Origin: an uncultured Candidatus Saccharibacteria bacterium
GTDB lineage: Bacteria > Patescibacteriota > Minisyncoccia > Phycocordibacterales > DATDWN01
Length of the DNA: 64,000 bases
Direction: 5' to 3'
Assembly: GCA_964596875.1 (NCBI GenBank)
Contig: CAZQVT010000002.1
Coordinates: forward strand, 5,508-69,507
Position 1 is the stretch's first letter. Each line of letters begins with the position of its first letter. The notes under the pieces are model-generated. The model made no database searches. It saw only the letters and a list, made by a program, of their open reading frames with translations, and was not told the origin of the DNA. Below are positions 1 through 42,539 of the stretch, piece after piece. A program made the translations under genes and the position numbers.

Positions 1-183
1 CAAACTCTACCAACTCTTTTAGATAAAACCTTATCACTTCGGCAAAGCTGACCGATGTAATCTTTTGAGTAGCCTGTTAGTGCTGATGCATCTTTAACAG
101 AAATGTATTTTTTATTTTCAAAAAATATATCCGAAACCATTGATGTAATTATATCCACTAAAAAAATATAATTCACCAAAATA

Positions 184-192
184 TGTGGATAA
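184..192 (-). promoter_or_regulatory. Perfect DnaA-box consensus (TTATCCACA on the minus strand; TGTGGATAA as written)
   Basis: Exact 9-mer match to the DnaA box consensus. It sits directly upstream of the iteron-like repeats. Confidence 0.5.
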
Positions 193-211
193 ATAAGGCT
201 TTCTCGTTTAA

Positions 212-285
212 CCGAGATTTTTTGGAATCCGAGATTTTGGAAAATTAGTTATCCGAGATTTTGGCAAAAAATGTTCCAGATTTTG
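212..285. repeat. Three to four direct repeats of (A/T)TCCGAGATTTTGG spaced about 17 to 24 bp apart (iteron-like)
   Basis: CCGAGATTTTTTGG at 212, TCCGAGATTTTGG at 228 and 252, and a degenerate CCAGATTTTG at about 275. This is seen directly in the sequence. Confidence 0.6.
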
Positions 286-534
286 TTCAGAACAAATTAG
301 GCATAAGTAAGAAAAATTTTATGAAAAATAATCATAAAAAAATGCCGCTGTGGTGGCCTAAAATGCCTCATATTTTACAACTCACTTGATTCCCGTAATA
401 TTCTATCCTAATCCAGATTAAACAGAGTTAGCGATATAATACAAAACCAAAGTTAGTTAAACATTATTAAAAATAGTTAGATATTACTATAGTTTTAGTA
501 TAGGATTATCAAGGTTTATAAATGTTTTAAATTA

Positions 535-915
535 TTATTTAATTGTTTTCAAATACTTTCTAATACTCTTTGGACTAACGCTTAGAGTCTCCTTGTTCTT
601 TGACTTAAGTATTATCGATATCTTTTCTGGTGACATTCCTTGTAGTGAATACTTTGTAATAAGTGCTTGAAGTTTAGTACTTCTGCCCACCTTATTTTGA
701 TTCGCTTTTTTAGTCTGCTGACGCTCTATGGCGTTTATATGTGCGTGGCTAGAACTGTATTTATCCTTACCTCCATTCCTGCTTATTTCTTCGCTTATGC
801 TTGATACACCTCTATCGAGTAGTGTTGCTATCTCAGTTACAGTTTTATTTGCCTTAAGCATCTTCTCGATCAGGAAACGCTCTTCTTTTTTAATATGTGA
901 TTTTTTATTTTTCAT
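535..915 (-). pseudogene. IS30-family transposase N-terminal HTH domain only. No DDE catalytic domain follows, so this is a truncated relic or a domesticated DNA-binding protein.
   Basis: Residues 10 to 80 (EERFLIEKMLKANKTVTEIATLLDRGVSSISEEISRN...) run parallel to the E. coli IS30 InsI HTH region (LSEREEIRAGLSAKMSIRAIATALNRSPSTISREVQRN). The ORF stops after 126 aa. No downstream ORF encodes a DDE domain. Confidence 0.5.
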
Positions 916-1429
916 GGATTCAGTAATAATACAACCTTCGTATTTAAAGGTAAAGGTTAATTTTAAAATATATGTTGATAATTCCCAATATATCGTTCAA
1001 AAGATACATGAAAGCCTAAGTTGTGGAGACAGATTATATGGGAATTAATCACGGTACTTGCTGCCCCTTTTATACCTCGTCAATCAATCAGTATTGGAAA
1101 TAAATCCTAACTGACTGCACTTACCCACTTCCTTCACAAATAGGCCAAATATAAGCAAATATACAGCATTACAGTCCATTATAATAAAACAAATCAATAG
1201 TTATATCTACACCATCACGTACCACAGATATAGTTATCGTAAAAGTAACTGATTGTGTGATGTTGTATTGGCCTGATCAGGACTAGGTGGGACATTATAT
1301 TGTTATCGAAGGCAAAGTGTACAAAAGCAATGTCCACACATTTCGCTAGAGAACATTGCTATTAATACATAAACCTAATAAAATATGTATATAAGTTTAT
1401 CAATGTTTATATCACTTTAAATTAACAAT

Positions 1430-1672
1430 ATGGCCAATCTTTACATAACAATCAAACAAGCATCAAAGATTCTTGGGGTATCTCCATTAACCCTACGCAA
1501 CTGGGACAACAACGGTAAACTGAAGGCTCACCGTCACCCCATGAACAACTACCGGGTTTACAAGATTGAAGACCTGGAAAAAGTGATCCATGAAATCGAG
1601 GTCAATGCAGGAATTCGAAAGAGTACAAAAAAAGAGGTTCATAAACTAATTGTTAAGCATTTAAGAGACTAA
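1430..1672 (+). CDS. MerR/excisionase-family HTH DNA-binding protein (AlpA/Xis-like), 80 aa
   Basis: IKQASKILGVSPLTLRNWDNNGKLKAHRHPMNNYRVYKIEDLEKV is the typical MerR-like excisionase HTH signature. Confidence 0.6.
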   Translation: MANLYITIKQASKILGVSPLTLRNWDNNGKLKAHRHPMNNYRVYKIEDLEKVIHEIEVNAGIRKSTKKEVHKLIVKHLRD

Positions 1673-1683
1673 AGTTCAAATAT

Positions 1684-1717
1684 AAAAAAATACCTCCGTC
1701 AAGAGGTATTTTTTTAT
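1684..1717. terminator. Bidirectional rho-independent terminator. The hairpin ATACCTCcgtcaaGAGGTAT is flanked by an A-run and a T-run.
   Basis: Seen in the sequence between the convergent HTH gene and gatB. Confidence 0.7.
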
Positions 1718-1738
1718 ATTTTTCAGATTGTGTATTTT

Positions 1739-3169
1739 TTATTTATTTAATATTTCTAGAATTATTTTTTTGAATACTTCTGGATTTACTGAACCTTTAC
1801 TTTCTTTCATCCCCTGCCCCACAAAAAACTGAAGTAGTGATTCTTTTCCAGATTTATATTCTGCAACTGAATCAGGATTTTCTGAAATAATTTTTTCTGC
1901 CATTCTTTTTATTTCTTCGATATCGTTTTTTTGTATCAATCCTTTTTCGTTTGCGATTACTTCTGCATCACCACCTGTTTCAAAAAGTATTTTCAAAATA
2001 TCTTTTGCTCCACGTGATGATAAGTCGCCTCGACCAATCATCTTGATTAGTTTTACAAAACTATCTATTTCGATCTTACCAACCACAAAGTCTTGTTTTA
2101 GAGTCTTTGAAAAACCTACAATATCTGAGGTTATATAGTTTGAGGCGGTTTGAACCAACTGCCCCTCCCCCAAAAGTCCGGCCACCTTTTCGAAAAAGTC
2201 ACTAGCCTCCCTATTACCAATATATACCTCGATGTCAGAATCTTTCACGCCAAAGTCTTTTGAAAGTCTCTGTCTTTTTAGTTCTGGTATTTCTGGTAAG
2301 TCTTTTGAAAGAGTGTCGCTAGAAAATTCTGGGATCTCACTTATTATAAGTTTTGGTAAATCTGGATCTGGGAAGTACCTATAGTCGTTTGCTGACTCTT
2401 TTAGTCTTTGTGAAAATGTTGAACCTTTGTTTTCATCCCATCCCCTAGTTTCCTGAACCACCTGTTTTCCATCTTCTAGTAAAGCGACCTGTCGTTTGAA
2501 TTCATAGTCAATTGCTTTTCCTGCTGCCTTAAAAGAGTTTATATTTTTTACTTCTACTTTTGTTCCAAATTTTTCTGTATCTGAAACTGAGATATTTACC
2601 TCGACTCGCATTTCGCCCTTTTCCATATTTGCATCTGATACATTTAAATACTGGAGTAGGAGTTGTAGTTCTTTAGCAAAATTCATAGCCTGTTCACTAC
2701 TGTGTATGACTGGCTCAGTCACAAGTTCAAGAAGTGGCACTCCGGCACGGTTATAATCAACCAAACTAACACCCGGTGTTTCGTGGGATGAGCGGGCTGT
2801 GTCTTCTTCTAGGTGTATTCTTGTTAACTCTACACCTGAAATAGATCCTCCTTGTACCAGAGGATATTTGTACTGACTTATCTGATAACCCTTTGGTATA
2901 TCTGGATAAAAGTAGTTTTTACGGTCAAACTCAGTGAAATCGGCCAGTTTACTGCCTATAGAGTGACCCACAAGAAGCACTTTTCTAACAGCCTCCTTGT
3001 TTATAGTAGGTAATGTTCCCGGGTGACCCATGCAAACAGGGCAAATATTAGTATTTGGAGCAACTTCTGTTTTATCAAATGAGCTGTTTTTACAGCCACA
3101 AAACATCTTGCTCTTGGTATTGAGTTCGGCGTGTATCTCTAGCCCAATTGTCATCTTGTACTTATTCAT
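1739..3169 (-). CDS. gatB: Asp-tRNA(Asn)/Glu-tRNA(Gln) amidotransferase subunit B
   Basis: The N-terminus MTIGLEIHAELNTKSKMFCGC and the overall GatB layout are recognised. Confidence 0.93.
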   Translation of the reverse strand: MNKYKMTIGLEIHAELNTKSKMFCGCKNSSFDKTEVAPNTNICPVCMGHPGTLPTINKEAVRKVLLVGHSIGSKLADFTEFDRKNYFYPDIPKGYQISQYKYPLVQGGSISGVELTRIHLEEDTARSSHETPGVSLVDYNRAGVPLLELVTEPVIHSSEQAMNFAKELQLLLQYLNVSDANMEKGEMRVEVNISVSDTEKFGTKVEVKNINSFKAAGKAIDYEFKRQVALLEDGKQVVQETRGWDENKGSTFSQRLKESANDYRYFPDPDLPKLIISEIPEFSSDTLSKDLPEIPELKRQRLSKDFGVKDSDIEVYIGNREASDFFEKVAGLLGEGQLVQTASNYITSDIVGFSKTLKQDFVVGKIEIDSFVKLIKMIGRGDLSSRGAKDILKILFETGGDAEVIANEKGLIQKNDIEEIKRMAEKIISENPDSVAEYKSGKESLLQFFVGQGMKESKGSVNPEVFKKIILEILNK

Positions 3170-3191: not shown

Positions 3192-4157
3192 CTACATTTT
3201 CCTAAGCATTTTTACCAACTCATCACTTAAGTTTTTTACTGATTGGTCATCCAAAATAGACACGTCGAGAACATTTTTATTCTTCTTTTTTAAGGTTGCA
3301 ATTAGTTTCTTTAGATCCTTTGGGTCGATAGTATCTGTTTTTGTTACCAAAATAGTCTCGGGTTTATCTAACAGTTCCTTATCATACTTACCCAACTCTT
3401 CTCTTATAAGAGTATAGTCTTCCAAAGGTTTTGGATTTTCAGCAGAAATACAATGAAGCAATGCTTTTGTTCTTGAGATATGTTTTAGAAAATTATGACC
3501 TAGTCCCTTCCCTGCCGAAGCACCCTCAATAAGTCCTGGAATGTCTGCCAAAACAAAACCGTACAAGTCGCCTAGGTTTGGTGCAATAGTTGTAAACTGA
3601 TAACTTCCCACTTTTGCTCGAGCCTTTGTAAGAGAGTTTAGTAAGCTTGATTTACCTGCATTAGGCAAACCAACCATACCAAGGTCTACTACAAGTTTAA
3701 GTTCTATCTGAAAAACTCCACCTTGCCCAACCTTACCAAGGGTTCTCTGTTTTGGGTTTATATTTCTCGGACCCTTAAAGTGTGTGTTGCCGTAACCTCT
3801 GTTTCCGCCCCGCAAAAAGAATATGGGCTCCTTATCCAAAACCTCTACAAACTTTGATGTTTCTACATCTTTTACAATACTACCGATAGGAAGTTCAATT
3901 ATTAGGTCTTCGCCAGCCTTTCCATTCATACAGTTTTTGCCACCCGGACTACCGTCCTCAGCCTTAAAAGATTTAACGAACTTGTATTTTGAAAGATAAC
4001 CTATATCAGAAACACCCTTAAGGTAGACATCTCCACCTCTTCCTCCATCACCACCTCCCGGACCAGCATGATCTATACCCTTAACATGCATCCAAGAAAC
4101 GATACCGTCACCACCCTTTCCGGCGTGGATCTCTACAGTTAGTTCATCTATAAACAT
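3192..4157 (-). CDS. obg: GTPase Obg
   Basis: The Obg fold N-terminus (glycine-rich GGDGGRGGDV) is followed by the G domain GLPNAGKSSLLN...DIPGLIEGAS. Confidence 0.9.
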   Translation of the reverse strand: MFIDELTVEIHAGKGGDGIVSWMHVKGIDHAGPGGGDGGRGGDVYLKGVSDIGYLSKYKFVKSFKAEDGSPGGKNCMNGKAGEDLIIELPIGSIVKDVETSKFVEVLDKEPIFFLRGGNRGYGNTHFKGPRNINPKQRTLGKVGQGGVFQIELKLVVDLGMVGLPNAGKSSLLNSLTKARAKVGSYQFTTIAPNLGDLYGFVLADIPGLIEGASAGKGLGHNFLKHISRTKALLHCISAENPKPLEDYTLIREELGKYDKELLDKPETILVTKTDTIDPKDLKKLIATLKKKNKNVLDVSILDDQSVKNLSDELVKMLRKM

Positions 4158-4339
4158 ATGGGTACTCTATCAGAAAAACCCTCTCAAACCAAATGCATCT
4201 CAAAAAACACTTGCATAGATTTTTAGTATTTGATATACACTACCAGTTATCCACAAAAAGTTGTAAAAATATTGTTTCCAAAATAAACAATATTTGATAC
4301 AAATTATTTAATTATTATTGAAAATAACACATTTAAAAC

Positions 4340-4561
4340 ATGAGTGATGACGAAAAAGAATTAGAGGAAGGTGAAGGTGGTGTGATAAATCCTGATCTAC
4401 TTGAAGAAGGACTTGGAGACGAAGAAGTGGATCTTGAGGAAAGAGATGATGGTTTTGGTGATGATGATGGAGATGGAGATGTTTCACTTTCGAAAGCCGC
4501 TGACGACGAGGATGCAGAAGGAGCCGAGTCCGATAAATATGACGACATAGATCTATTATAA
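4340..4561 (+). CDS. Hypothetical highly acidic small protein (73 aa, about 45% D/E)
   Basis: The ORF is followed at once by a strong terminator. The antisense ORFs are low-complexity Ser- or His-rich. There is no SD, and the coding strand is uncertain. Confidence 0.3.
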   Translation: MSDDEKELEEGEGGVINPDLLEEGLGDEEVDLEERDDGFGDDDGDGDVSLSKAADDEDAEGAESDKYDDIDLL

Positions 4562-4593: not shown

Positions 4594-5817
4594 TTATAAA
4601 ACTTTTATTTTAATAAATCTCCTCTTGCCTATCTTGTAGACTCCATTTGAAACAACGGCATCTGCATTACTTACTTTTTCTCCACTCTCTATATTTGTGA
4701 CTGCTCCTTCAGAAATAAGTCTTCTGAATTCTGTTTTTGAGATTATGATTTGATTTATCATTAAGATATCACAAAGTGATGCACCTTCGGCAACACTTAC
4801 TTCTACAACATCTTCTGGCACTCCACCCTTTGCAAAAGTATTTTCAAAAGCATCCTCTGCCTTCTTTGCAGACTTTTCATCAAAACAAATTTTCACCAAC
4901 TCTCTAGCCAAAAACATTTTGTACTCCTTTGGATTTTTACCTGAGTCGAGAGATTCTTTTACTGACTCTATGTCACTTACTGGAACATCAGTTATGATTT
5001 CTAATCCCGGAACAATCATTTCATCTCCCCAACTCATAACCTTTCCGTACATTTCCTCAGCAGACTGGTCTAAGGAAACCATATTGTTTTCAGTCTTGCC
5101 CATCTTTTTACCACTTGGGTCTACCAAAAGTTTTGTAGCAAATACAAATTTTTCTTTATTTTTTAGCGTTTTTAAAAGGTCTCTCCCTGCCAACATATTC
5201 CAAGTCTGGTCATTACCGCCTATTTCCCCGTCTACCCCCATTGCAACAGAGTCATATCCCTGCATTAGTGGATACATAAACTCTGAAAGATTTATGGGCT
5301 TACCTTCCTCCATTCTTTTTGCAAACATTTCTCTTTCTAACATTTGTTGAACTGTAAAATTTGTAGAAAGTTCCAAAACATCAGCAAAAGACATTTTTCC
5401 AAGCCACTCTGAGTTAAATTTGAATTCCGCAGGATTACTTCCAGAGAAATCTATAAACCTCGATGCTTGTTTTTTGTAGTTTTTTAAGTTGTTTAAAACC
5501 TCCTGACGTGTAAGTTTTTTACGTGTTGCCGTCTTATCTGTAGGGTCTCCAATCATTGCGGTAAAATCCCCCATTAGAAGTATTATTTTGTGACCGAGTT
5601 TTTGAAACTTAGACAATTTAATAAGTGGTATCAAGTGCCCCAAATGCAGCGTTGGACCAGTCGGGTCAATACCAAGATAGATAGTTAATTTTTCCCCCTT
5701 TAACATTCTGGATTTTAAAAAATCCTTGTTAGGAAAGACGTTTTCAACGCCACGAGTAATCAAAGATTCTATCTCCTTTTCATCAGTTAAAACTTTAGAT
5801 TTTCTGAAATTAAACAT
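4594..5817 (-). CDS. tyrS: Tyrosyl-tRNA synthetase with a C-terminal S4-like domain
   Basis: HIGH motif (HLGHLIPL) and KMSKS motif (KMGKT). Confidence 0.95.
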   Translation of the reverse strand: MFNFRKSKVLTDEKEIESLITRGVENVFPNKDFLKSRMLKGEKLTIYLGIDPTGPTLHLGHLIPLIKLSKFQKLGHKIILLMGDFTAMIGDPTDKTATRKKLTRQEVLNNLKNYKKQASRFIDFSGSNPAEFKFNSEWLGKMSFADVLELSTNFTVQQMLEREMFAKRMEEGKPINLSEFMYPLMQGYDSVAMGVDGEIGGNDQTWNMLAGRDLLKTLKNKEKFVFATKLLVDPSGKKMGKTENNMVSLDQSAEEMYGKVMSWGDEMIVPGLEIITDVPVSDIESVKESLDSGKNPKEYKMFLARELVKICFDEKSAKKAEDAFENTFAKGGVPEDVVEVSVAEGASLCDILMINQIIISKTEFRRLISEGAVTNIESGEKVSNADAVVSNGVYKIGKRRFIKIKVL

Positions 5818-8420: not shown

Positions 8421-9521
8421 TTACTTGTTCATTGGCATAACCAGGTAAAGGAAGGACTTATCCGAAACACCCTGTATCACCATAGGCCTGTTTGTGTCTG
8501 AAAAAACCAAAGTAATACTGTCTGAATCTATAGACTGAAAACAGTCGGTTATGTATTTATAATTAAAACTAATATTCAAATCCTCCCCTTTTAAAACCGC
8601 GTCTATACTACTTGTATTTTCTCCAACATCTATATTTTTAGTTAAAATCTTAAACATTTTGTTTTTAGGAGAAATTTTAAAGGTAACCTGACTAAATTTG
8701 TCAGCAAAAATATTTGAGATTTTTAGAGAACTTACTAGGTCTTGTTTTAATACCGTAACTTCTGTTTTTATATCCTTAGGTATAATCTGTTTATAGTCAG
8801 GAAAAACACCGTCTATTACTCTAGAAGTTATATATACTTCACTGTATGAAAAAGCTATTTGATTTTCATCCAAATAAACAAAAATATCGTCCTTAGTGTC
8901 TTCTATAACTCTTATAATCTCCCCTATATTTTTAACTGGTATCAAAATCTGATTAAATTCCTTATGCTTTTTAACACCTATCCTTTTTTCACTTAGTCTA
9001 AATGAGTCAGTAGCAACAAAAACAACATCATCGTCTTCTGATAGTAATAAAACACTAGATAGTGTCGGTCTGATAGTTGAGTTTGAGGCACTATACATTA
9101 CAGACTTAAATCCTTTTATAAGATTTGGAGCGTTGAAAGTAAAAGGATTTTGGTTTGTTACTTTTGGTATGTTTGGGAAATCATCTATTGAGTATGATTT
9201 TATTATAGACTCAGAGTGATTTGTAGAGATTTTTAGGTTTCCTTCAACCTCTTCTAGGGTTACATTCTTATCATTTATTATGTTTGATATAAAACTGTAT
9301 AAAACACTTCCAGATACAGCGATTTTACCCGGCTTGTTTACCTTTACTGGTATACTTATCTCTATACCCAAATCAAGGTTAGTTGCTTTTATAGTAAGAG
9401 TGGAGCCTTGTGCCTCTAATAATACACAACTCAATATAGGTAGAGTTATATTTTTACCAGTTATTTTCTCTACCTTTCCAATAGCGTATGAAAGTTTGTC
9501 TTTAATGCATTCAATATTCAT
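8421..9521 (-). CDS. dnaN: DNA polymerase III beta sliding clamp
   Basis: 366 aa with a three-domain clamp layout, immediately downstream of dnaA. Confidence 0.93.
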   Translation of the reverse strand: MNIECIKDKLSYAIGKVEKITGKNITLPILSCVLLEAQGSTLTIKATNLDLGIEISIPVKVNKPGKIAVSGSVLYSFISNIINDKNVTLEEVEGNLKISTNHSESIIKSYSIDDFPNIPKVTNQNPFTFNAPNLIKGFKSVMYSASNSTIRPTLSSVLLLSEDDDVVFVATDSFRLSEKRIGVKKHKEFNQILIPVKNIGEIIRVIEDTKDDIFVYLDENQIAFSYSEVYITSRVIDGVFPDYKQIIPKDIKTEVTVLKQDLVSSLKISNIFADKFSQVTFKISPKNKMFKILTKNIDVGENTSSIDAVLKGEDLNISFNYKYITDCFQSIDSDSITLVFSDTNRPMVIQGVSDKSFLYLVMPMNK

Positions 9522-9732
9522 AGTATTAGTTTATTTATTTTATTTAAAGAATTCTAATTATATAGACTGTGTATAACTGGATAACTCGATAAAACTCTTA
9601 TTTATAGCCCTAATTCTAGAGAGGTTATGTGGATAACCTTGTTAAAACGATTGATAACTCTTTATTGGGGATATCTAATGAACAGTTTTTAATGATTTAC
9701 CAATAACTTATATACACACTATACACAATCTT
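9522..9732. promoter_or_regulatory. Candidate oriC / DnaA-box cluster in the dnaA-dnaN spacer
   Basis: TGTGGATAA (rc TTATCCACA) at 9628..9636, TGGATAACT at 9578, TTGATAACT at 9651, and TTATATACACA / CTATACACA near 9700. Confidence 0.55.
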
Positions 9733-11073
9733 TTACACAAAGATAGACCTAAGTTGGTTTATCTCTTGTACCAAAACCTCATCACTTTTTATGTCATTTT
9801 TTATCTTTTCACATGAGTGCATAACTGTGGTGTGGTCTCTACCACCTAGTTTTTCCCCTATTGCAGGGAAAGATATATTAAAATCCTCTCTCAGGATATA
9901 CATTATTATCTGTCTAGGTTTTATAATTTCTTTTTTTCTGGTTTTGTCGTAGATAAGTTGCTCTTCTATGTTGTAAAAGTCGGAAACAGTCTTAACTACT
10001 TCTTTAATAGATATTATTTTCTTTGGTCTGGTGTTGTTTTTAACGAAACTTTTTACTTCTGCAAGTGTTAATTCCCTTCCTTTTAACTGAGACTGGCATG
10101 TTATCGAGTTTATAGTTCCTTCTAATTCTCTAATGTTTCCATTTATAGAGTAAGCTAGGTATTCCACAACATCTTTTCCTAATGGATACTCACTAGCGTT
10201 TAGTTTCGCCTTAATAATAGCGATTCTGGACTCATTATCAGGGGTTGGAATGTCTACCGTCATACCAGCACTGAACCTAGACTTCAGACGGTCTTCTAAG
10301 TCTTGGATAAGTGCAGGGTGTTTATCTGAAGAAAAGATAATTTGTTTGTTGTTTTCGTACAAATGGTTAAAAAGATGGAAAAGTTCCTCTTGAGTTTTCA
10401 TTTTTCCAGAGAAAAACTGCACATCATCCATTATCAATACATCGTATTTTCTGTACTTCTCTTTAAAGAAGTTAGGTTTGTTTGATTGGATGGCGTTTAT
10501 AAGTTCTTGAGAGAATTTTTCCGAAGTAGTGTAAAAAACTTTTCTACCACCAGATGATTTTAGGTAGTTCCCCATCGCTTGTATAAGGTGAGTCTTGCCG
10601 TGGCCAGTTCCTCCGTAAATAAATAGTGGGTTATAAACTATTCCAGGTTTTTTTATGACTGCCTGACTAGCGGCATAAGCAAATTCATTGAATGGTCCTA
10701 CGACAAAAGTATCAAAAGTGTATCTAGGGTTTAGATTATCCTCTTTGTTTATAAAAGTATCAGCGATAGGAAGTTCTCTAGTAACTGGTTGAGGTTTTTC
10801 TGCAAATGCTTTTTCTCGCATCTCCTCTTTTGAAATAATGTAGTGTAGTGACTGGACGTTACTAGATAGGTTTCGAAGAGATTTTAGTATAGTGTTATGA
10901 AACTTACTTGAAAGCCAGTCTTGAACAAAGGTATTTGGCACTCCCAGATATACAGTTCCGTTTTCTTGCTTAACAATAAAAGTATCTTTGAACCAGGTGT
11001 TGAAGTTAGGTTTAGACAAAGTTAACTCCATCTCGATCAGAACACCATCCCAAAGTTTTTTATTGTCCATCAT
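9733..11073 (-). CDS. dnaA: Chromosomal replication initiator DnaA
   Basis: AAA+ Walker A GGTGHGKTHL, and a C-terminal DNA-binding domain with a HTTVMHSCEKI-like signature. Confidence 0.97.
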   Translation of the reverse strand: MMDNKKLWDGVLIEMELTLSKPNFNTWFKDTFIVKQENGTVYLGVPNTFVQDWLSSKFHNTILKSLRNLSSNVQSLHYIISKEEMREKAFAEKPQPVTRELPIADTFINKEDNLNPRYTFDTFVVGPFNEFAYAASQAVIKKPGIVYNPLFIYGGTGHGKTHLIQAMGNYLKSSGGRKVFYTTSEKFSQELINAIQSNKPNFFKEKYRKYDVLIMDDVQFFSGKMKTQEELFHLFNHLYENNKQIIFSSDKHPALIQDLEDRLKSRFSAGMTVDIPTPDNESRIAIIKAKLNASEYPLGKDVVEYLAYSINGNIRELEGTINSITCQSQLKGRELTLAEVKSFVKNNTRPKKIISIKEVVKTVSDFYNIEEQLIYDKTRKKEIIKPRQIIMYILREDFNISFPAIGEKLGGRDHTTVMHSCEKIKNDIKSDEVLVQEINQLRSIFV

Positions 11074-11184
11074 AGTCTAGTTATTATATAGAAAAGAAAA
11101 AAAGATGGCACTTGTTAAAAACACTCATTTATGTTAATAATGTGTGTACAAGGTGTTAATAACGATAAAACATAATTTTACAAC

Positions 11185-11322
11185 ATGTCTCAAACATATC
11201 AACCAAAAAAAAGAAAGAGAGCTAGAGCACACGGATTTCTAACAAGAAGTAAGACTGCTTATGGCAAAAAAACACTTCTAAGAAGAAGAAGAAAAGGACG
11301 GGCTAAACTTTCTACAGTATAG
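11185..11322 (+). CDS. rpmH: 50S ribosomal protein L34 (45 aa). It is absent from the ORF track because it is under 60 aa.
   Basis: Translated by hand as [45 protein letters not shown]. Canonical rpmH-rnpA-yidC order. Confidence 0.9.
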
Positions 11323-11352
11323 TACAGTCTCCCTATTCACTCCTATTTAAAT

Positions 11353-11700
11353 ATGTTGCCTAAAACAAGAAGAATAGAGAGAAAATACTTTAAACAAATA
11401 CTAACCCAGGGTAAAAGGTATAATTCCCAGTCTTTTAGCCTTTATTTGTCCAAAAATGACGAAGGTTCTACAGAAACACCTAGTAAGGTGGCTTTCTCAG
11501 TATCTAAAAAAGTAGTAAAAACTGCCGTAGGGAGAAACAAACTAAGAAGGAGGGGTTACTCAGCCATTTCTAAAAATATAAAGTCAATAAAACCAGGATT
11601 TCTTCTGTTTTTTGTGTATAAAAAGGACTACGAAAAGGATTATGTAAAAATTGAGTCCGAGATACAAACATTACTTTCACCTGCTCTTGTGATAATATAG
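11353..11700 (+). CDS. rnpA: RNase P protein component
   Basis: Basic 115-aa protein that follows rpmH. Confidence 0.88.
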   Translation: MLPKTRRIERKYFKQILTQGKRYNSQSFSLYLSKNDEGSTETPSKVAFSVSKKVVKTAVGRNKLRRRGYSAISKNIKSIKPGFLLFFVYKKDYEKDYVKIESEIQTLLSPALVII

Positions 11701-11704
11701 TCAA

Positions 11705-12421
11705 ATGACTTCAATATTTCACACACTTGTTTCTGAACCTTTATACAGCGGACTAGTTTTTCTTATAAATTCCCTACCCTTCTTTGATGTTGGTGTTGTA
11801 ATAATCATATTTACTATTATTACCAAGATAGTCTTGCTACCCCTTTCTATAAAGGCTTCAAAGTCTCAACTTGAGATGAAGAATGCCGAAAAAGACCTTG
11901 CTGTTATAAAACAAAAATATACAGATAAATCAGAACAGAGTTTGAAGGTGATGGAATATTACAAAGAAAAAGGCATAAATCCTTTTTCTGGAATACTTAT
12001 CCTACTTATTCAACTTCCTATACTTATCGGCCTGTATAGAGTGTTTTTGGGCCTACCAAAGATAAATCTAGACCTTCTATATAGTTTTGTGCCTGCACCA
12101 GAAACAATAAACATGATGTTTCTAGGTTTTGTTGATATGTCACAAAAAAGTTTGGTTTTGGCGCTTCTTGTTGGCGTTACAACATATATACAAACAAGCA
12201 TTGTGAGTTCAGGACAGACTACTGGTGGACAAGATAGTCAAAATGAAATTGCAAAAGCGATGGCTTTTCAAATGAAATACTTCCTTCCGGTATTTATTAC
12301 TGTAGTTATCTACAATATCTCTTCCGCCGTAGCCCTATATTTGTTTGTGAGTAACGTATTTTCTATTGCTCAAGAACTATATATCAAAAACAGATACCAT
12401 AAAAACATAGTGGTTGTTTAA
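11705..12421 (+). CDS. yidC: Membrane protein insertase YidC (short Oxa1-like form)
   Basis: 238 aa with 5 TM segments, following rnpA. Confidence 0.85.
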   Translation: MTSIFHTLVSEPLYSGLVFLINSLPFFDVGVVIIIFTIITKIVLLPLSIKASKSQLEMKNAEKDLAVIKQKYTDKSEQSLKVMEYYKEKGINPFSGILILLIQLPILIGLYRVFLGLPKINLDLLYSFVPAPETINMMFLGFVDMSQKSLVLALLVGVTTYIQTSIVSSGQTTGGQDSQNEIAKAMAFQMKYFLPVFITVVIYNISSAVALYLFVSNVFSIAQELYIKNRYHKNIVVV

Positions 12422-18060: not shown

Positions 18061-18696
18061 TTACGAAGTTTTAATAGGTTTCTCTGTGTCCCCCGGATTA
18101 AATATTTTGTAAAACAACTCAACAATCTCTTCTGTTCCAAGTTTTACTACACGGATTCCACATCGAGACAGTCCCTGTTCTACTACTGAAACTCTTTGCT
18201 CTAGTTGTGTGCGGTTTTCCTCAAAACTAGTCTCTTTTCTCGCTAGTTCTTCTTCAGAGTTTGTTTTTTTAAAGAAACCAACCCCACCGCTTTTGATGTT
18301 TATAAGTGCGGGGTCGTAGGGAACAACAATAAAGAAACTTTTTGTCATTATGTTAGTAGACTCTGTGAATTTTTTTATAAACTCAATATATTCCCTAGTC
18401 TGGATTTTCATTAGATCATTCATCTGTTCCTTGTACCTGTCCTCTAGCAGGGCTATATACGGCCGTATGTCTAGTCTTCTGGACTGAATGGAAACTTGCA
18501 CTGTGAAGTCCAGAGAGTTTAGGAAATCTTGAAACTGCAAGATGATTGCTCTTCTTTCATCTTCTGACTTTAGACTAAAGTTAAGAGAAGAAGTCATAAT
18601 GAGGCTTCTAAGAGAACCATCTTTTAAAATAATAGTTCCTCCCCTGACCTCTTTTATTGGCACAAATTCTTGAGTTGCTTTTGAGTTTATTGCCAT
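18061..18696 (-). CDS. VirB4/ConE-family N-terminal domain encoded as a separate 211-aa ORF
   Basis: PIKEVRGGTIILKDGSLRSLIMTSSLNFSLKSEDERRAIILQFQDFLNSLDFTVQVSIQSRRLDIRPYI matches the N-terminal signature of Gram-positive VirB4-like ATPases (Tn916 Orf16 / ICEBs1 ConE type). The stop codon lies 11 nt before the ATG of the ATPase ORF, in a different frame. Confidence 0.6.
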   Translation of the reverse strand: MAINSKATQEFVPIKEVRGGTIILKDGSLRSLIMTSSLNFSLKSEDERRAIILQFQDFLNSLDFTVQVSIQSRRLDIRPYIALLEDRYKEQMNDLMKIQTREYIEFIKKFTESTNIMTKSFFIVVPYDPALINIKSGGVGFFKKTNSEEELARKETSFEENRTQLEQRVSVVEQGLSRCGIRVVKLGTEEIVELFYKIFNPGDTEKPIKTS

Positions 18697-18723: not shown

Positions 18724-19161
18724 TTATTTTGTTGTTTGTCCATCTTTTCCTGTGAGTGGATTAAGATTTTCATTTATGTCCAAAGTCCAAGTCAAATCTT
18801 TTAGTTTACTGTCAGAAATTCTAGGCATGTAAACCTGTCTTGTTGGGTCCTTGTAAACTGTTTCAGTCTTAACTATTTTTTTGTCCTCTTTTTTCCATAT
18901 GTATAGGTTTTGTTTTGTGTAAAAAAGAAAGGCTGACTCCATAAAGTCTATAAATGGTTTGTTGTTTACTTTGTAGAACGCCAAAGCCACAGAAAGTGGT
19001 CCAACTACAGCAATGAGGAGTATTGATACATATATAGGTAGGTATTTGAAGATCACAAAACACATGCCTGCCCCACCAGCAAGGTATATGAATTGTTTTA
19101 CAGTCAAAGGTCCTATAACCTTATCCTCTACATCAATAAATTGTGGTACTTGGTATCGCAT
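18724..19161 (-). CDS. PrgI/TcpE/VirB3-like small membrane protein
   Basis: N-terminus RYQVPQFIDVEDKVIGPLTVKQFIYL followed by two TM segments. It lies immediately upstream of VirB4, as in Gram-positive T4SS. Confidence 0.6.
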   Translation of the reverse strand: MRYQVPQFIDVEDKVIGPLTVKQFIYLAGGAGMCFVIFKYLPIYVSILLIAVVGPLSVALAFYKVNNKPFIDFMESAFLFYTKQNLYIWKKEDKKIVKTETVYKDPTRQVYMPRISDSKLKDLTWTLDINENLNPLTGKDGQTTK

Positions 19162-38534: not shown

Positions 38535-38650
38535 TTATTTTGTGGTCAGGAGTCTTTTTCTGGTGAAAAAGCTCACGACCCTGACTCGCGCCGACGCGTT
38601 CCGTCTAGCACAAGTCTCTAAAAATTAATAATATTAATTTTTCTCGCTAG

Positions 38651-38722
38651 TGCTCCCGGCAGGAATCGAACCCACATCCACGGTTCCGAAGACCGGTACT
38701 CTATCCGTTGAGCTACGGGAGC
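38651..38722 (-). tRNA. tRNA-Arg (anticodon TCG). CCA is not encoded.
   Basis: Folded by hand: GCTCCCG/CGGGAGC acceptor stem, anticodon loop CTTCGGA, T-loop TTCGATT. Confidence 0.8.
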
Positions 38723-38914
38723 AATACTTAATGTTAACACGAACGTTCTACTTGTGGAATCTCCCTCGACTCATGGTTTTATCGTCAAAAACCATGGTCT
38801 GGGCACCGGCTCAGCTTCGTGCCTTGCTAGGCACTCATTGCTTCCGCCGTTCGATTCCCTATGCAAAAGCACGCTTTTGCATTACCCGCACAAATTTTGC
38901 GGAGCCAAATTCTG

Positions 38915-38985
38915 TGCGGGTACCGGGAATCGAACCCGAATCTCGTCCTTGGCAAGGACGTGTTCTACCATTAAACCATACCCGC
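38915..38985 (-). tRNA. tRNA-Gly (anticodon GCC)
   Basis: Folded by hand: GCGGGTA/TACCCGC acceptor stem, anticodon loop TTGCCAA, T-loop TTCGATT. Confidence 0.85.
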
Positions 38986-39337
38986 AATAATTTAATAATC
39001 TACATCATATAACAAAGTCATTAAAATTAAAAGAGCCTAGGTTATTAGACGTCTTATTCATAAAATGTGGATAACTATGGGGACATGTGAATTAAGGACA
39101 AGTCTTTAAAATAAGGCCATTTTGCGTATCATTTTGTCTGCATGGATTAAATATGGCTTAAAATAAGGATATTTTTAATTCGACATGGCCTATAAGTGTC
39201 TGTTTTTTATGCCTTTTAGTAAATGTTTCACGTGAAATGTAAGTTTTGTTATACATGAAACACCTCTTATCCTGACTATGGGAGGGTTGCACGTGTAACC
39301 TTATTTACTAAATATCAAAGAGGTGTATATTTTGTCT

Positions 39338-39760
39338 ATGTATAACAAGAACTTCACCAAAGAGCCGACAGATAAGCAGAAGATTGGACAGATAGGGGAA
39401 GACCTTGCTTCTGAGCATCTTAAGGATAGTGGGTTTCAGGTAGTGGATAGAAACTATTTGAAGAAGTGGGGAGAGATAGATATTGTCGCTAAAAAAGGCC
39501 ACGTTTTGCATTTTGTTGAGGTTAAAACCGTTACAGAATACAGTAATTCTGTTACACATGTAACAGAAACAGGGGAGTTTAGGCCTGAAGACAATATGCA
39601 CCCTTGGAAATTGCAGAGACTTGGTAGGGCAGTACAGTCATATTTGTTAGAAAAAAATGTTTTAGATGAAACAGAATGGCAGTTTGATTTAGTTACGGTG
39701 TATCTAGATAAGGATAAAAGACTCAATAAAATTGAGTTGCTAGCAGATATTGTCCTATAA
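39338..39760 (+). CDS. yraN: UPF0102/YraN-family endonuclease-like protein
   Basis: GEDLASEHLKDSGFQVVDRNYLKKWGEIDIVAKKGHVLHFVEVK. An AAAGAGG SD lies upstream. Confidence 0.75.
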   Translation: MYNKNFTKEPTDKQKIGQIGEDLASEHLKDSGFQVVDRNYLKKWGEIDIVAKKGHVLHFVEVKTVTEYSNSVTHVTETGEFRPEDNMHPWKLQRLGRAVQSYLLEKNVLDETEWQFDLVTVYLDKDKRLNKIELLADIVL

Positions 39761-39812
39761 GGGTAGGGGTTTGTTAAACCGTAACTTTGTGATAGAGTTT
39801 AGATTGTGTTTT

Positions 39813-39885
39813 CGGAGTGTAGTGTAACGGCTAACATTCCTGTTTTGGGAACAGGCGACTCCGGGTTCGAATCCCGGCACTCCGA
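39813..39885 (+). tRNA. tRNA-Pro (anticodon TGG)
   Basis: Folded by hand: CGGAGTG/CACTCCG acceptor stem, anticodon loop TTTGGGA, T-loop TTCGAAT. Confidence 0.85.
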
Positions 39886-39891
39886 CAATTT

Positions 39892-40311
39892 ATGGATGAA
39901 TATGTGAAAGAAGGCTTGTTTTATGTGGTTCAAAAAGCATTTATTAAAAATGGTAATGACATTTTGGTATTAAATGATCCGAAAGAAGGGCTAGATTATC
40001 CTGGTGGGAAAATTCAAAAAAATGAAGATAGTATAGTGGATGCCTTGAAAAGGGAGGTTTTAGAGGAAACTGGAATTAGTATAGACATAAAGAAACCATT
40101 TTTTACTGCAATAGATAAATACCCAGAAGACCATAAACACGCTGGAAAACTATTTTATATTGTGTTTTATGAATGTGAATTTGTTTCTGGGGAAGTAAGT
40201 TTGAGTTCGGAACACAACAATTTTTCTTGGGTAAACAAGGATAATTATAAAAAAGTTGATGATGGAACGTGGTATTTTGATGTATTAAAAAGCTATTTAT
40301 CTAATAAATAA
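39892..40311 (+). CDS. NUDIX hydrolase
   Basis: Nudix box GGKIQKNEDSIVDALKREVLEETGI. Confidence 0.85.
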   Translation: MDEYVKEGLFYVVQKAFIKNGNDILVLNDPKEGLDYPGGKIQKNEDSIVDALKREVLEETGISIDIKKPFFTAIDKYPEDHKHAGKLFYIVFYECEFVSGEVSLSSEHNNFSWVNKDNYKKVDDGTWYFDVLKSYLSNK

Positions 40312-40398
40312 CAATTATAAAAAATGATGCGCCGGTCCTCGTGCGAGGAACCAGCGCATGCCCCAGTAGGGGACTTCAGGTCGAATCGGTTGAACGGG

Positions 40399-40617
40399 TC
40401 ACTCGATGCTGTCGTTCGGGTCGGGGAGCTTGCCCCTGCCCCCACGACTCACCTTGCCGCCCTTCGAGCCAGCGATGCCCGCGGACTCGGAGTTCCACTC
40501 GTGGGCCGTGCCCTTTGCGTGGGCAGCCCTGCCACCCTTGCTTGCGATTTCTCGCTGACGCTCCGTGCTCATGGCAGCGAAGCCTCTTTTCTTCCCGTTC
40601 CGAACGTGATCCGTCAT
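40399..40617 (-). CDS. KGG-repeat general stress protein (YciG/GsiB-like). It is encoded on a 65% GC cassette of about 340 bp.
   Basis: RGFAAMSTERQREIASKGGRAAH...SESAGIAGSKGGKVS are KGG motifs. The cassette has its own GGAGGA SD and a GC-rich terminator followed by TTTTTT at 40324..40345. Confidence 0.65.
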   Translation of the reverse strand: MTDHVRNGKKRGFAAMSTERQREIASKGGRAAHAKGTAHEWNSESAGIAGSKGGKVSRGGRGKLPDPNDSIE

Positions 40618-40697
40618 GGGTCCTCCAGGGTTTTCTGGCCAAGTCAGACTATATCAGAATAATAGAAACAGTCTAGTTTTTGTGGTAGTGTTTTTGT

Positions 40698-41009
40698 ATG
40701 GTTTTTATAAAAAATAAAGAAAATTTTGTATGTGAAAAATGCGGCTTTGAGGTAGAAGGGGATGGTTTTACAAACCATTGTCCAGAGTGTTTGTGGTCAA
40801 AGCATGTAGATATTTCTCCTGGCGACAGACTAAATATCTGTGGGGGACTAATGGAACCAATACAAATACTGAAAAAGGGAAGAGAGTATTCTATTTTACA
40901 CAAATGTACAAAGTGTGGGTTTGAAAAACCTAATAAGGCAAGTATGAATGATAATTTCCAAATTATTGTCCAAGTTTCTGCATCTGGCCAATCTCATCGT
41001 CTAAAATAA
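40698..41009 (+). CDS. RNHCP-domain zinc-ribbon protein
   Basis: CEKCG...TNHCPECLWSKHVD...CTKCG. The last 8 codons and the stop codon lie inside the type-B repeat. Confidence 0.6.
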   Translation: MVFIKNKENFVCEKCGFEVEGDGFTNHCPECLWSKHVDISPGDRLNICGGLMEPIQILKKGREYSILHKCTKCGFEKPNKASMNDNFQIIVQVSASGQSHRLK

Positions 41010-41086
41010 TAAATAAAATTCTCAATGTACTAATTTGTACACCTCCAATTTTATTTATTATTTCATACGCGACCTTGTCTCAGATC
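40986..41086. repeat. Type-B hairpin repeat, copy 2
   Basis: GGCCAATCTCATCGTCTAAAATAA, then a perfect 18-bp AT-rich outer inverted repeat (AAAATAATAAATAAAATT / AATTTTATTTATTATTTT) enclosing TGTACtaatttGTACA, then ACGCGACCTTGTCTCAGAT. Confidence 0.8.
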
Positions 41087-41106
41087 CAGAAACTTTGTTA
41101 AAGGTT

Positions 41107-42222
41107 TTAGTTTGATCTTAGCAACTCTTCGGTAATAAGTTTTGTTAGTTCTGGTGCAGTTGAGGTGGCAAAACTTTCCGCAAAGTTTTTATGGTTTAAA
41201 TCAAGAAATTGTCTCAGATTTATCTTTAGATCTCTTTGAACTTCTCTGTTTATATGTGAAACAGTAATGGCGTTTAGACCTCTGCTACTAGTCGTGTCCC
41301 CGTCAGAGCTGGTAGATATTATTCCTATGAGTGAAGTGTTGGAGTCTACTACTAAGCCTCCCGAAGATCCTTTCTGGGAAACTATGGTTCCTCCTACAGA
41401 GACTATGTCTATGGTTCCATTTTTGAAAGTAAAAACATCTTGAATTTGCGTAATACTACTTGCAACATTTAGATTTTGAATAATAGAAAGTCCACCTAGA
41501 AAACCAGCAGGGTAGGAGACTAGTAGTACTGGCTCACCAACAGCAATGTACTCTCTGGTATTTGGTGTTATATAGGTGTAACCATTTTTATTTTGTTCCC
41601 CATCTATTTCACCTGTAATACGAAGAAAGGCGAAATCGCTTTCACCAGTGCCTTTCGGGTCTTGATCTTTTAATAAAGTTTTATTTGCTTTTACCCAGTC
41701 TGGGGAAATGTAAACAAGTTCTATATTATATTTTGGATAAGCCGGACTGCCTGTTCTACCAACACATTTTAGATAATCTTTTTCTCTAAAATTTCTAAGT
41801 AGCATGTACTGGCCAATATGTGCATTTGTAAGTATTAGTCCATCACCATTTACAACAACACCCGTTCCTGAAATAGGCGAAAGTTCATTATATTTTGTGG
41901 TGCAAAAAATATTTACTATAGTTTTTCTGGATTCAGTGTTTATCTTTTCGAAATCCGGAGGAATGTAGGATGTGGTTGTCGCAATAATTTCTTTTGTTTC
42001 TTGAGGTTTAGAATCTTTCTGTATTTTTTTAGGGGTTGAAGTTGCTTTCGGTACAACTTTTATTTTTTCTGTTCCTGTGCTTGCGGCAGTTGTTTTTTGA
42101 GTAGTTGTGGCTTTGGGGCTGTCTTTCGGCGCGATGTATATTTCGGGTTTGGACGAATGAAAAAAACTAGTTATAGCGATAAGTGGAGTAAAAACTATTG
42201 TAGCGATAGCTTTTAGTAGCAT
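41107..42222 (-). CDS. Membrane-anchored trypsin-like (S1/HtrA-type) serine protease without a PDZ domain
   Basis: Catalytic triad context TNAHI...DFAFLRI...GSSGG. N-terminal TM and a Thr/Lys-rich linker. Confidence 0.8.
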   Translation of the reverse strand: MLLKAIATIVFTPLIAITSFFHSSKPEIYIAPKDSPKATTTQKTTAASTGTEKIKVVPKATSTPKKIQKDSKPQETKEIIATTTSYIPPDFEKINTESRKTIVNIFCTTKYNELSPISGTGVVVNGDGLILTNAHIGQYMLLRNFREKDYLKCVGRTGSPAYPKYNIELVYISPDWVKANKTLLKDQDPKGTGESDFAFLRITGEIDGEQNKNGYTYITPNTREYIAVGEPVLLVSYPAGFLGGLSIIQNLNVASSITQIQDVFTFKNGTIDIVSVGGTIVSQKGSSGGLVVDSNTSLIGIISTSSDGDTTSSRGLNAITVSHINREVQRDLKINLRQFLDLNHKNFAESFATSTAPELTKLITEELLRSN

Positions 42223-42301
42223 GGCATAATTATACCACTTAGAAATAACTTAAAAATTGCGAGGTGTTCGTTTTTCTGTTACCATAGTCTTGTTAAGTAT
42301 T

Positions 42302-42372
42302 GCGGGATTAGTTTATCGGTAAAACAACAGTTTTCCAAACTGTGGAGAGCGGTTCGACTCCGCTATCCCGCA
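42302..42372 (+). tRNA. tRNA-Gly (anticodon TCC)
   Basis: Folded by hand: GCGGGAT/ATCCCGC acceptor stem, anticodon loop TTTCCAA, T-loop TTCGACT. Confidence 0.85.
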
Positions 42373-42539
42373 CACACGACGAAAATAACCTCCTAAACGG
42401 AGGTTTTTTCGTACGTGTGTGAACCGGAGCGCGACGGCGCGAGGTCGGGTCGGGAAAGTTTTTAACAAAAAACTATTCCTGACCAAGAGAAAGGCCATTG
42501 TGTCCAAGGAGTGAGACATCCGCTATTTAAATACAAAAA

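Follow-up and report, generated by a model that had tools for sequence, protein, structure and literature searches.

A probable chromosomal regulatory locus with a promoter-linked repeat array, a small MerR-like protein and an IS30-derived DNA-binding domain in an uncultivated Parcubacteria-type bacterium

The domestication of transposase domains is well documented in eukaryotes, while to our knowledge few bacterial cases have been documented; a literature text search for domesticated transposase DNA-binding domains returned eukaryotic cases only. Among the bacterial insertion sequences (IS), the transposase of IS30 reportedly binds its inverted repeats through its N-terminal region. A different kind of DNA-binding protein is represented by BldC of Streptomyces, which is MerR-like, consists of 68 amino acids (aa), has no coiled-coil or effector domains and binds variable numbers of direct repeats head-to-tail (PMC5859096). 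The locus described here shows likenesses to both. It occupies positions 1–1730 of a 64,000-nucleotide (nt) stretch of DNA from an uncultured bacterium, referred to below as the window (GenBank assembly GCA_964596875.1, contig CAZQVT010000002.1, forward-strand positions 5,508 to 69,507). It contains the start of a giant surface-protein gene with an array of direct repeats in its promoter, a gene for a 126-aa protein with the HTH_38 domain of IS30-family transposases (the HTH_38 protein), and a gene for an 80-aa MerR-like protein (MerR80) that lies next to gatB.

The analysis indicated that these elements probably form a conserved chromosomal regulatory locus of a candidate phyla radiation (CPR) bacterium of the Parcubacteria/Minisyncoccia type, and not the relic of a replicon. 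The locus was gathered from about ten independent lineages of CPR metagenome-assembled genomes (MAGs), which carry the labels Parcubacteria, Minisyncoccia or, inconsistently, Saccharibacteria, and more distant relatives of the giant gene were added to this collection. The gene order obg-gatB-MerR80-HTH_38-giant gene was found to recur in about ten independent MAG lineages.

The giant-gene promoter and its repeat array

A first-pass annotation had recognised a DnaA box at position 184 followed by three to four direct repeats, and had read them as the origin of a plasmid or phage, perhaps belonging to a decayed integrated replicon. All of the sequence features that it listed were found in their places. 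The box is perfect, and the repeats follow with start-to-start spacings of 17, 24 and 22 nt, the fourth copy being weak. The interpretation as an origin is refuted, in the way that the annotation itself had foreseen, as the array is conserved upstream of a chromosomal giant gene in relatives. Extension of the sequence upstream, where a replicon would be expected to show rep, integrase, att or tRNA genes, revealed the giant gene instead, and the four tRNA genes of the window lie 37–42 kb away. Neither the window nor the flanks of the syntenic loci, covered over 3–10 kb on each side, yielded any rep, integrase or att. The neighbours of the array are the giant gene, the HTH_38 and MerR80 genes and gatB, with no Rep initiator gene adjacent to it.

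The box and the repeats are located 44–124 nt upstream of the giant-gene start codon, within an upstream region of 394 bp. When 14 loci were aligned on the giant-gene ATG (alignment A2), the central part of the intergenic region could not be aligned and the last 110 nt were conserved. The sole invariant blocks were the 9-mer TTATCCACA, the only one that was fully invariant, and the -10 box. The TATAAT sequence was found 7–8 nt from the ATG in all 14 relatives, and the box lay at -52 to -56 in 16/16 loci scanned. One-mismatch variants of the box were TTATCCCCA in loci L056 and L058 and TTGTCCACA in L061, and in L060 the box was situated about 5 nt further upstream.

The promoter-proximal palindrome was present in 13 of the 14 aligned promoters, in a perfect form (TCTCGGATAACCGAGA) in L015 and L016 and in tandem in L012 and L016. 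The register of the array was kept across relatives, with the palindrome halves at -78/-79 and -68 and further half-sites at -95/-98 and -119/-120, while the number of half-site copies varied from 0 to 3 (none in L052). Fixed distances from the start codon were observed in 18 loci, including lineages that have no IS-derived gene. In the window, TCCGAGATTTTGG is exact at 228–240 and 252–264, the copy at 211–225 has one extra T, and the fourth copy is probably non-functional. The repeat core AAATCTCGG occurs three times in the 64 kb, always within this array, compared with 0.43 expected. Palindrome and box were also kept in L054, where a gene for an IS200/IS605-type Y1 transposase (3584–4246) takes the place of MerR80 and HTH_38, and in L013, where the MerR80 copy (~3337–3545) has 45% identity and is interrupted by an in-frame stop.

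In four relatives (L056, L058, L060 and L061) HTH_38 is missing, and MerR80 is directly divergent from the giant gene across 255–520 bp. The gene order on the far side of these empty sites is tyrS-obg-gatB-MerR80, with a DsbB-domain gene in the place of tyrS in L060. The palindrome was found in L056, L060 and L061, and in L058 its halves are about 22 nt apart (usually 4–6 nt). Since the empty-site relatives keep palindrome and box, the repeats and the box are native to the giant-gene promoter, and only the HTH_38 segment, which these relatives do not have, is a lineage-specific insertion. Moreover, as the repeats occur without HTH_38, the HTH_38 protein is not their primary binder. The inverted repeats of IS elements were also compared with the ATCTCGG repeats, and no convincing similarity was found.

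The position of the -10 box indicates that the giant-gene transcript is probably leaderless, in which case transcription starts downstream of the array, which would be an operator or activator array acting at the DNA level. In keeping with this reading, there were no Rfam matches, and covariation is lacking in the palindrome, whose sixth (closing) position showed mismatches instead of RNA-stem-like changes. A Shine-Dalgarno-like match was found for only 3 of the 58 genes in the window, and many of these genes have the layout TATAAT-N6–9-ATG, which suggests that the organism uses mostly leaderless mRNAs. It was also observed that an extended -10 box (TGTGGTATAAT-like) lies 6–9 nt 5' of the ATG of, for example, the genes at 18061–18696, 18724–19161, 41107–42222 and 9733–11073. 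Literature searches on leaderless translation in Parcubacteria and on giant genes in CPR bacteria returned nothing specific to the locus.

The giant gene, which starts at position 140, continues upstream of the window, to which an identical public contig (L002) adds 479 nt. In one relative the gene encodes at least 6,465 aa before the contig ends, and the protein of another relative has 4,336 aa with Peptidase_S74 and Bact_surface_Ig-like domains. The contigs of nearly every relative (L003, L004, L006–L016) stop inside the gene within a few kb of where it begins, presumably because it is repetitive and assemblies break in it.

The IS30-derived segment and MerR80

No catalytic domain was detected in the HTH_38 protein with Pfam. 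Its 30 homologues cover the whole protein and are 123–166 aa long, all but one of them 123–138 aa; the 166-aa homologue (P0002) carries an upstream ORF (open reading frame) extension. They share one site, between MerR80 and the giant gene, and the same neighbours were seen in about ten lineages, i.e. the segment has no variable location. Pairwise dN/dS values were 0.09–0.21, with dS saturated. Full-length IS30-family transposases obtained from a metagenome scan were 316–358 aa long and contained HTH_38, the rve domain being detected, below the Pfam cut-off, in only two of the three (L026 and L029). Residues 1–121 of the 126-aa protein aligned end to end with the N-termini of the transposases of L026 and L028 (43% and 39% identity, E 1e-27 and 5e-21, respectively).

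Upstream of the HTH_38 gene lies a relic of the left terminal inverted repeat (IRL) of such an element. In the full-length elements the left repeat reads TCTCCCTACCTTTAAATACGAATCAATAATAT in L028 and ..GACCTTTAAATACGAACACCC in L026, both with a matching right inverted repeat (IR). The 16-nt core TACCTTTAAATACGAA is identical in the intact L028 element, where it is 19 nt from the start codon (21 nt here), and matches at 15 of 16 nt in L026. It was exact in about ten independent relatives and single-copy in the window, and the IRL overlaps a promoter-like TTTACC-17-TATTAT sequence detected in a promoter scan. No second core was found near the locus with up to three mismatches, nor was a right IR. 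No coding remnant of a DDE (rve-type) domain was called 3' of HTH_38, a direct translated search of 141–534 not having been run. Searches with tblastn using HTH_38, MerR80 and the giant-protein N-terminus detected no paralogues in the 64-kb window, and no full-length IS30 was present there. Comparison of HTH_38 with PDB sequences gave only spurious matches to designed repeat proteins.

The HTH_38 gene and the inverted repeat upstream of it are the left end of an IS30-family element that has lost its catalytic half and its right end. HTH_38 lacks a catalytic domain and a right IR, is single-copy, and is kept at a fixed position under purifying selection; it is therefore a derivative of an IS30 element and not an IS. 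By analogy with the known behaviour of IS30 transposase, autoregulation would be the simplest role of the retained pair: the HTH_38 protein probably acts on the IRL, which overlaps its own promoter, and it may have been co-opted as an extra local regulator.

Two short blocks occur on both sides of the IS-derived piece. The first, motif B, is conserved in relatives after the HTH_38 stop codon and duplicates a block of about 35 nt located 5' of MerR80 (1390–1424). When the two intergenic regions were aligned locally, it gave the top-scoring match in six of seven lineages, with three of these scores above those of shuffles (z 2.7–4.4). Motif B was also found in L054, a locus without HTH_38, at about 360 nt upstream from the giant gene, and its second copy adjoins MerR80 in the empty-site relatives as well. 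The second block is the module just outside the IRL, which shows 19/28 nt ungapped identity to positions 181–208. Both blocks have the same order and orientation on the two sides. A partial duplication of the ancestral intergenic region around the IS insertion is thereby suggested, with modest statistical support.

MerR80 is a core, near-invariant Parcubacteria protein. It was 87–99% identical in eight relatives for which the full ORF was displayed, and a search returned 1,518 homologue clusters, the top 120 being 79–104 aa long and at least 84% identical. In all 13 lineages with context examined it adjoins gatB. An AlphaFold2 (AF2) model (predicted local distance difference test score, pLDDT, 83) showed two short helices after the wing. 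The best fold matches at low root-mean-square deviation (rmsd) were Xis of mycobacteriophage Pukovnik (4j2n; 2.1 Å, 49 columns), which was the top Foldseek match, and BldC (6amk; 1.7–1.8 Å, target TM-score 0.77–0.81). MtaN, CueR and SoxR were also matched by Foldseek, in the winged helix only, with an rmsd of 7–10 Å for full-length MerR proteins. MerR80 has no long coiled-coil dimerisation helix and no C-terminal effector-binding domain. Its own upstream region was defined from an alignment of 10 relatives (Table 1).

Further statements of the first-pass annotation could be followed up here. The 126-aa ORF does match only the N-terminal DNA-binding region of IS30 transposases, and the suggestion of a domesticated transposase-derived regulator, which had been offered as an alternative, gained support from the DNA-binding-domain-only gene, the solo IRL, the purifying selection and the empty-site relatives. 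The MerR/Xis-like description of MerR80 stood as regards the Xis-type fold and HTH_17. A role as mobile-element excisionase was rejected, as no integrase or att was found in the syntenic loci (3–10 kb per flank) and the gene encodes a near-invariant core protein adjoining gatB. The bidirectional terminator said to abut gatB was confirmed by perfect arms of 19 nt each (1678–1696 and 1703–1721) and by its predicted folding on the two strands (-20.1 and -22.4 kcal/mol, z -6.9 and -6.7); its sequence is kept in relatives, as is visible in read-through translation. The non-coding stretch of about 500 bp measures 514 bp (916–1429) and showed no Rfam match and no excess of RNA structure.

A non-coding RNA was considered as an explanation of the intergenic DNA and rejected. 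The Rfam scan of the window at gathering thresholds returned four tRNAs only, a permissive scan of 1–1800 gave sub-threshold noise, and the fold z-scores were null (-0.3 and +0.6 for the two strands of the spacer at 1000–1340, -0.8 for the minus strand of 290–500). The four tRNA genes (Arg-TCG, Gly-GCC, Pro-TGG and Gly-TCC) are clustered at 38650–42373, are unrelated to the locus and have no integrase close by. Between obg and tyrS, an ORF for an acidic 73-aa protein (MSDDEKELEEGEGG...) is located at 4340–4561 on the plus strand; it has no Pfam match, and a gene for 62–91 aa was called at this position in relatives.

Table 1. Coordinates of the features of the locus (positions in the window)
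Feature	Position	Strand	Remarks
Giant gene, 5' end	1–140	-	ATG at 140–138; N-terminus MVSDIFFENKKYISVKDAS.LTGYSKDYIGQLCRS
-10 box TATAAT	148–153	-	7 nt before ATG; no Shine-Dalgarno sequence
Near-invariant block GAGAAAGCCTTATTTATCCACATATTTT	178–205	-	contains the DnaA-type box TTATCCACA at 184–192 (-44 to -52 from ATG)
Promoter-proximal palindrome TCTCG-N6-CGAGA	202–217		at -62 to -77
Three direct half-site copies (CC)AAAATCTCGGAT	211–225, 227–240, 251–264	-	called iterons in the first-pass annotation
Fourth, degenerate copy (ACAAAATCTGGAA)	274–286	-	3 mismatches; not conserved in relatives
Motif B block TAATTTAAAACATTTATAAACCTTGATAATCCTATA	499–534	-	10-bp tandem repeat of ATTGATAAAC type, directly after the HTH_38 stop codon
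Stand-alone 126-aa HTH_38 protein	535–915	-	Pfam HTH_38 E 5.7e-8; domesticated IS30-family transposase DNA-binding domain
Relic left terminal inverted repeat (IRL)	926–958	-	core TACCTTTAAATACGAA at 937–952, 21 nt upstream of HTH_38 ATG
Module AACGATATATTGGGAATTATCAACATAT	970–997	-	CGA half-site and box variant TTATCAACA, just outside the IRL; conserved in relatives
Fast-evolving spacer	998–1325		length roughly conserved, sequence unalignable between relatives
Conserved MerR80 upstream region	1331–1424	+	box-like TGTCCACA at 1331–1338 (TATCCACA in relatives); motif B copy 2 at 1390–1424
MerR80, 80-aa MerR/HTH_17 winged-helix protein	1430–1672	+	PF00376 E 4.4e-11; HTH_17 E 3.9e-8; no effector domain
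Bidirectional intrinsic terminator	1678–1721	both	between convergent MerR80 gene and gatB
gatB	1739–3169	-	housekeeping flank; followed by obg (3192–4157), tyrS, a PBP gene, dnaN and dnaA

Proposed mechanism and alternative readings

The ancestral layout was gatB followed by MerR80, with MerR80 divergent from the giant surface-protein gene across an intergenic region of 255–520 bp. An IS30-family element inserted into this region in the sub-lineage of the window and lost its catalytic domain and right end, and the IS-derived piece may now be flanked on both sides by partial copies of the original region. The giant-gene promoter consists of TATAAT at 7 nt from the ATG, the box near -50, the palindrome near -70 and up to two more ATCTCGG half-sites, all in a fixed register. 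The array may serve as a DNA-level operator or activator on which MerR80 would oligomerise at the half-sites, as BldC and Xis do, and the box may be bound by DnaA or by a lineage-specific factor. MerR80 is the preferred binder of the ATCTCGG half-sites, a tentative assignment held with rather less than even confidence. It is preferred because of the ancestral divergent arrangement, the near-invariance of both protein and half-site, the variable repeat number and the match to the BldC/Xis fold.

Several observations weigh against parts of this proposal. The assignment of MerR80 was made from adjacency, fold analogy and matched conservation, and the palindrome is kept in L054, where MerR80 is not adjacent, and in L013, where it has the in-frame stop. 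The upstream region of MerR80 itself contains motif B and not ATCTCGG. In addition, some of the sites are full palindromes, which a symmetric dimer would fit better than BldC-type head-to-tail binding. The duplication scenario draws on two short blocks with z-scores of 2.7–4.4 in some lineages only, the leaderless transcript is deduced from spacing only, and the autoregulation of HTH_38 is likewise a deduction, from the behaviour of IS30.

The sequence TTATCCACA behaves as a promoter-associated element near the origin and may be a true DnaA site. Four perfect boxes (184, 4247, 9628 and 39066) were found in the 64 kb, and with up to one mismatch the count was 25 compared with 18.9 expected, which is not above chance. 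All four perfect boxes are intergenic (intergenic fraction 0.115, f^4 = 1.8e-4), and each points toward the downstream gene, 52–133 nt upstream of it, these genes being the giant gene, the gene for the 73-aa acidic protein, dnaN and a tRNA-Gly gene. The boxes at 184 and 4247 are positionally conserved in relatives, the latter even where the giant-gene box has changed. The third perfect box (9628–9636) is located in the 211-bp spacer between dnaA and dnaN (9522–9732), together with the near boxes TTATACACA (9568) and TTATCCAGT. The genes dnaN (8421–9521), dnaA (9733–11073), rnpA and yidC span 8.4–12.4 kb (8421–12421), indicating that the real origin region is elsewhere than the array. The chromosomal oriC is probably the dnaA-dnaN spacer, about 9 kb from the array; the minimum of the cumulative GC skew is not at this spot but near 50 kb.

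A genuine DnaA site at TTATCCACA would couple the giant gene and its origin-proximal neighbours to replication status, or would titrate DnaA near oriC, and is compatible with the best explanation of the repeats. It is regarded as a possibility that falls well short of even. The 9-mer matches the DnaA consensus exactly and does not vary among the 14 aligned promoters, the distribution and orientation of the perfect boxes, one of them next to dnaA, fit this function, and box-like sequences also occur 5' of the HTH_38 gene (TTATCAACA) and of the MerR80 gene (TGTCCACA). However, the giant gene has a single box and no cluster, and the conservation extends beyond the 9-mer (ATTTATCCACATATTTT), which is not required for DnaA binding. 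In L056 and L058 the giant-gene box TTATCCCCA alters a core position while the obg-side box is canonical, and the MerR80-facing box of L056 is altered in the same way as the giant-gene box, which hints at a different, co-evolving factor. Because of the box variants TTATCCCCA and TTGTCCACA and the canonical obg-side box in L056 and L058, it is possible that a lineage-specific factor instead of DnaA acts at the giant-gene box.

The giant protein could also regulate itself, its cytoplasmic Xis-like N-terminal domain, tethered by a hydrophobic segment, binding the palindrome and half-sites of its own promoter. The first 60 residues of the protein are nearly invariant among relatives, and an AF2 model of the N-terminus showed a winged helix at residues 11–50 (pLDDT 86–90), followed by disorder and a hydrophobic helix; in the full protein the hydrophobic segment after this domain is followed by thousands of residues. 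The modelled topology (strand-helix-helix-strand-strand) is the same as that of MerR80. As no BLASTP similarity was found between the two, they are, as judged from the models, related only at the level of fold and topology. The motif is still found with the giant gene in loci that do not have MerR80 and HTH_38 as neighbours (L054, partly also L052), the domain gave low-rmsd local matches to Xis (1.5 Å over 45 columns) and TraN, and in L058 the widely spaced palindrome halves coincide with a first ORF that is missing the N-terminal helix-turn-helix (HTH).

On the other hand, the match of the N-terminus to HTH_17 (E 3.8e-4) is below the Pfam cut-off. The fold search with the model gave no significant match (all E >=0.15), since most of the model is of low confidence. 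The membrane topology is presumed, L058 is a single case, and it would be unusual for a tethered protein of more than 4,000 aa to act on DNA. Autoregulation by the giant protein is judged unlikely, at about one chance in four, and is the main rival of MerR80 as binder of the repeats. A wider scheme is less probable still: the membrane-tethered product of the cell's largest gene, a Parcubacteria surface protein of >4,000 aa, would sense and control its own leaderless promoter in cis, the DnaA-type box would add coupling to replication, and MerR80 and the IS30 domain would compete or cooperate at the array. Two variations of the N-terminus were observed in relatives. In a Zambryskibacteria relative (P0032; L052, 5001–6078) the winged helix is duplicated in tandem, and in several genomes (L053, L054 and L058) the N-terminal HTH and the hydrophobic part (165–236 aa) form a separate ORF ahead of the large ORF.

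It is very unlikely that the 126-aa ORF is a decaying IS fragment, or a truncated transposase that inhibits IS30 copies elsewhere, rather than a host regulator. It does consist of a transposase DNA-binding domain alone, next to one IR, and truncated transposases that inhibit transposition exist, such as InsA of IS1 and OrfA of IS911. This reading is contradicted by the uniform length and chromosomal position across lineages whose synonymous sites are saturated, by the low dN/dS values (0.09–0.21), and by the conservation of the IRL core while the adjoining spacer cannot be aligned. Moreover, the 64-kb window contains no other copy and no full-length IS30.

An even smaller probability is given to a function of repeats and hairpin in RNA, whether as a 5' untranslated region element, attenuator, small RNA or plus-strand terminator. 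The plus strand at 202–217 forms a short hairpin followed by a T-run, and the minus-strand hairpin reached a z of -3.2, but the plus-strand hairpin is no more stable than shuffles (z -0.8), the stem has five pairs with a mismatched closing position, and the array has no Rfam match. In all relatives TATAAT lies 7 nt from the ATG, so that the transcript would begin downstream of the array. The palindrome as an RNA stem was rejected, as the variable closing pair shows no covariation.

Least credible is a replication origin from a plasmid or phage that integrated and decayed, with both HTH genes as its Rep-binding or excisionase remnants: a perfect box does adjoin three to four direct repeats of 17–24 bp period, and an IS-derived and a Xis-fold gene are close by, but the array keeps its distance from the chromosomal giant-gene start in 18 loci, some without the IS-derived gene, the region has no rep, integrase, att or tRNA gene, the Xis-like gene adjoins gatB in 13/13 lineages and codes for a core protein represented by more than 1,500 homologue clusters, the box count of the window is not above chance, and the dnaA-dnaN region is about 9 kb away.

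Comparison with known systems

The results remove a false lead, as the locus is no cryptic replicon. They also provide a clean bacterial case in which the DNA-binding domain of a transposase has been kept with its cognate terminal repeat after loss of the catalytic half, the insertion being confirmed by empty-site relatives. The proposed regulatory module of these uncultivated Parcubacteria is compact, consisting of an 80-aa BldC/Xis-like protein, a fixed-register array, a DnaA-type box and a giant gene with a related winged helix. Regulation has hardly been explored in CPR bacteria, and all components are small enough for in vitro tests.

Like an IS30-family IS, the locus encodes a protein that aligns with the N-terminal 120 residues of CPR IS30-family transposases (39–43% identity) and has the 16-nt IRL core at a similar distance upstream of the start codon (21 nt compared with 19 nt in L028). 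Unlike such an IS, the HTH_38 locus is without catalytic domain, right IR, multiple copies and variable location.

MerR80 resembles BldC and Xis in being a small MerR/HTH_17 winged-helix protein without effector domain that superposes on them at low rmsd. The promoter adjacent to MerR80, to which its binding is putative, has a variable number of direct half-sites (0–3), as in the BldC system. MerR80 differs from BldC in that it is only about 24% identical, with BldC not found by sequence search, and has an extra pair of C-terminal helices; some of the sites here are symmetric palindromes. Unlike the Xis directionality factors, it has no integrase partner and is therefore not an excisionase.

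Direct repeats with a period of about 20 bp beside a DnaA box in AT-rich DNA are shared with the iteron origins of pSC101, P1 and lambda (ori) and with oriC. In contrast to iteron origins, the array has no Rep gene, is in a fixed register with promoter and start codon, and is conserved together with the downstream gene. It differs from a chromosomal oriC in having one box, with dnaA-dnaN located elsewhere in the window.

The ancestral arrangement, in which a small HTH gene and its probable target are transcribed away from each other and enclose palindromic and repeated sites, is that of divergent regulator-target pairs of the MerR-merT type. The array lies at -62 to -124 and not in a 19-bp spacer between -35 and -10 as in MerR systems. 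The giant protein, which starts with an HTH followed by a hydrophobic segment, is similar in layout to tethered regulators of the ToxR/CadC type, except that its HTH is of the Xis/HTH_17 and not of the OmpR type. Each component of the locus thus belongs to a known kind, and the interest lies in the domestication of a transposase domain, in a core BldC/Xis-like protein of Parcubacteria and in a giant gene that starts with a DNA-binding fold.

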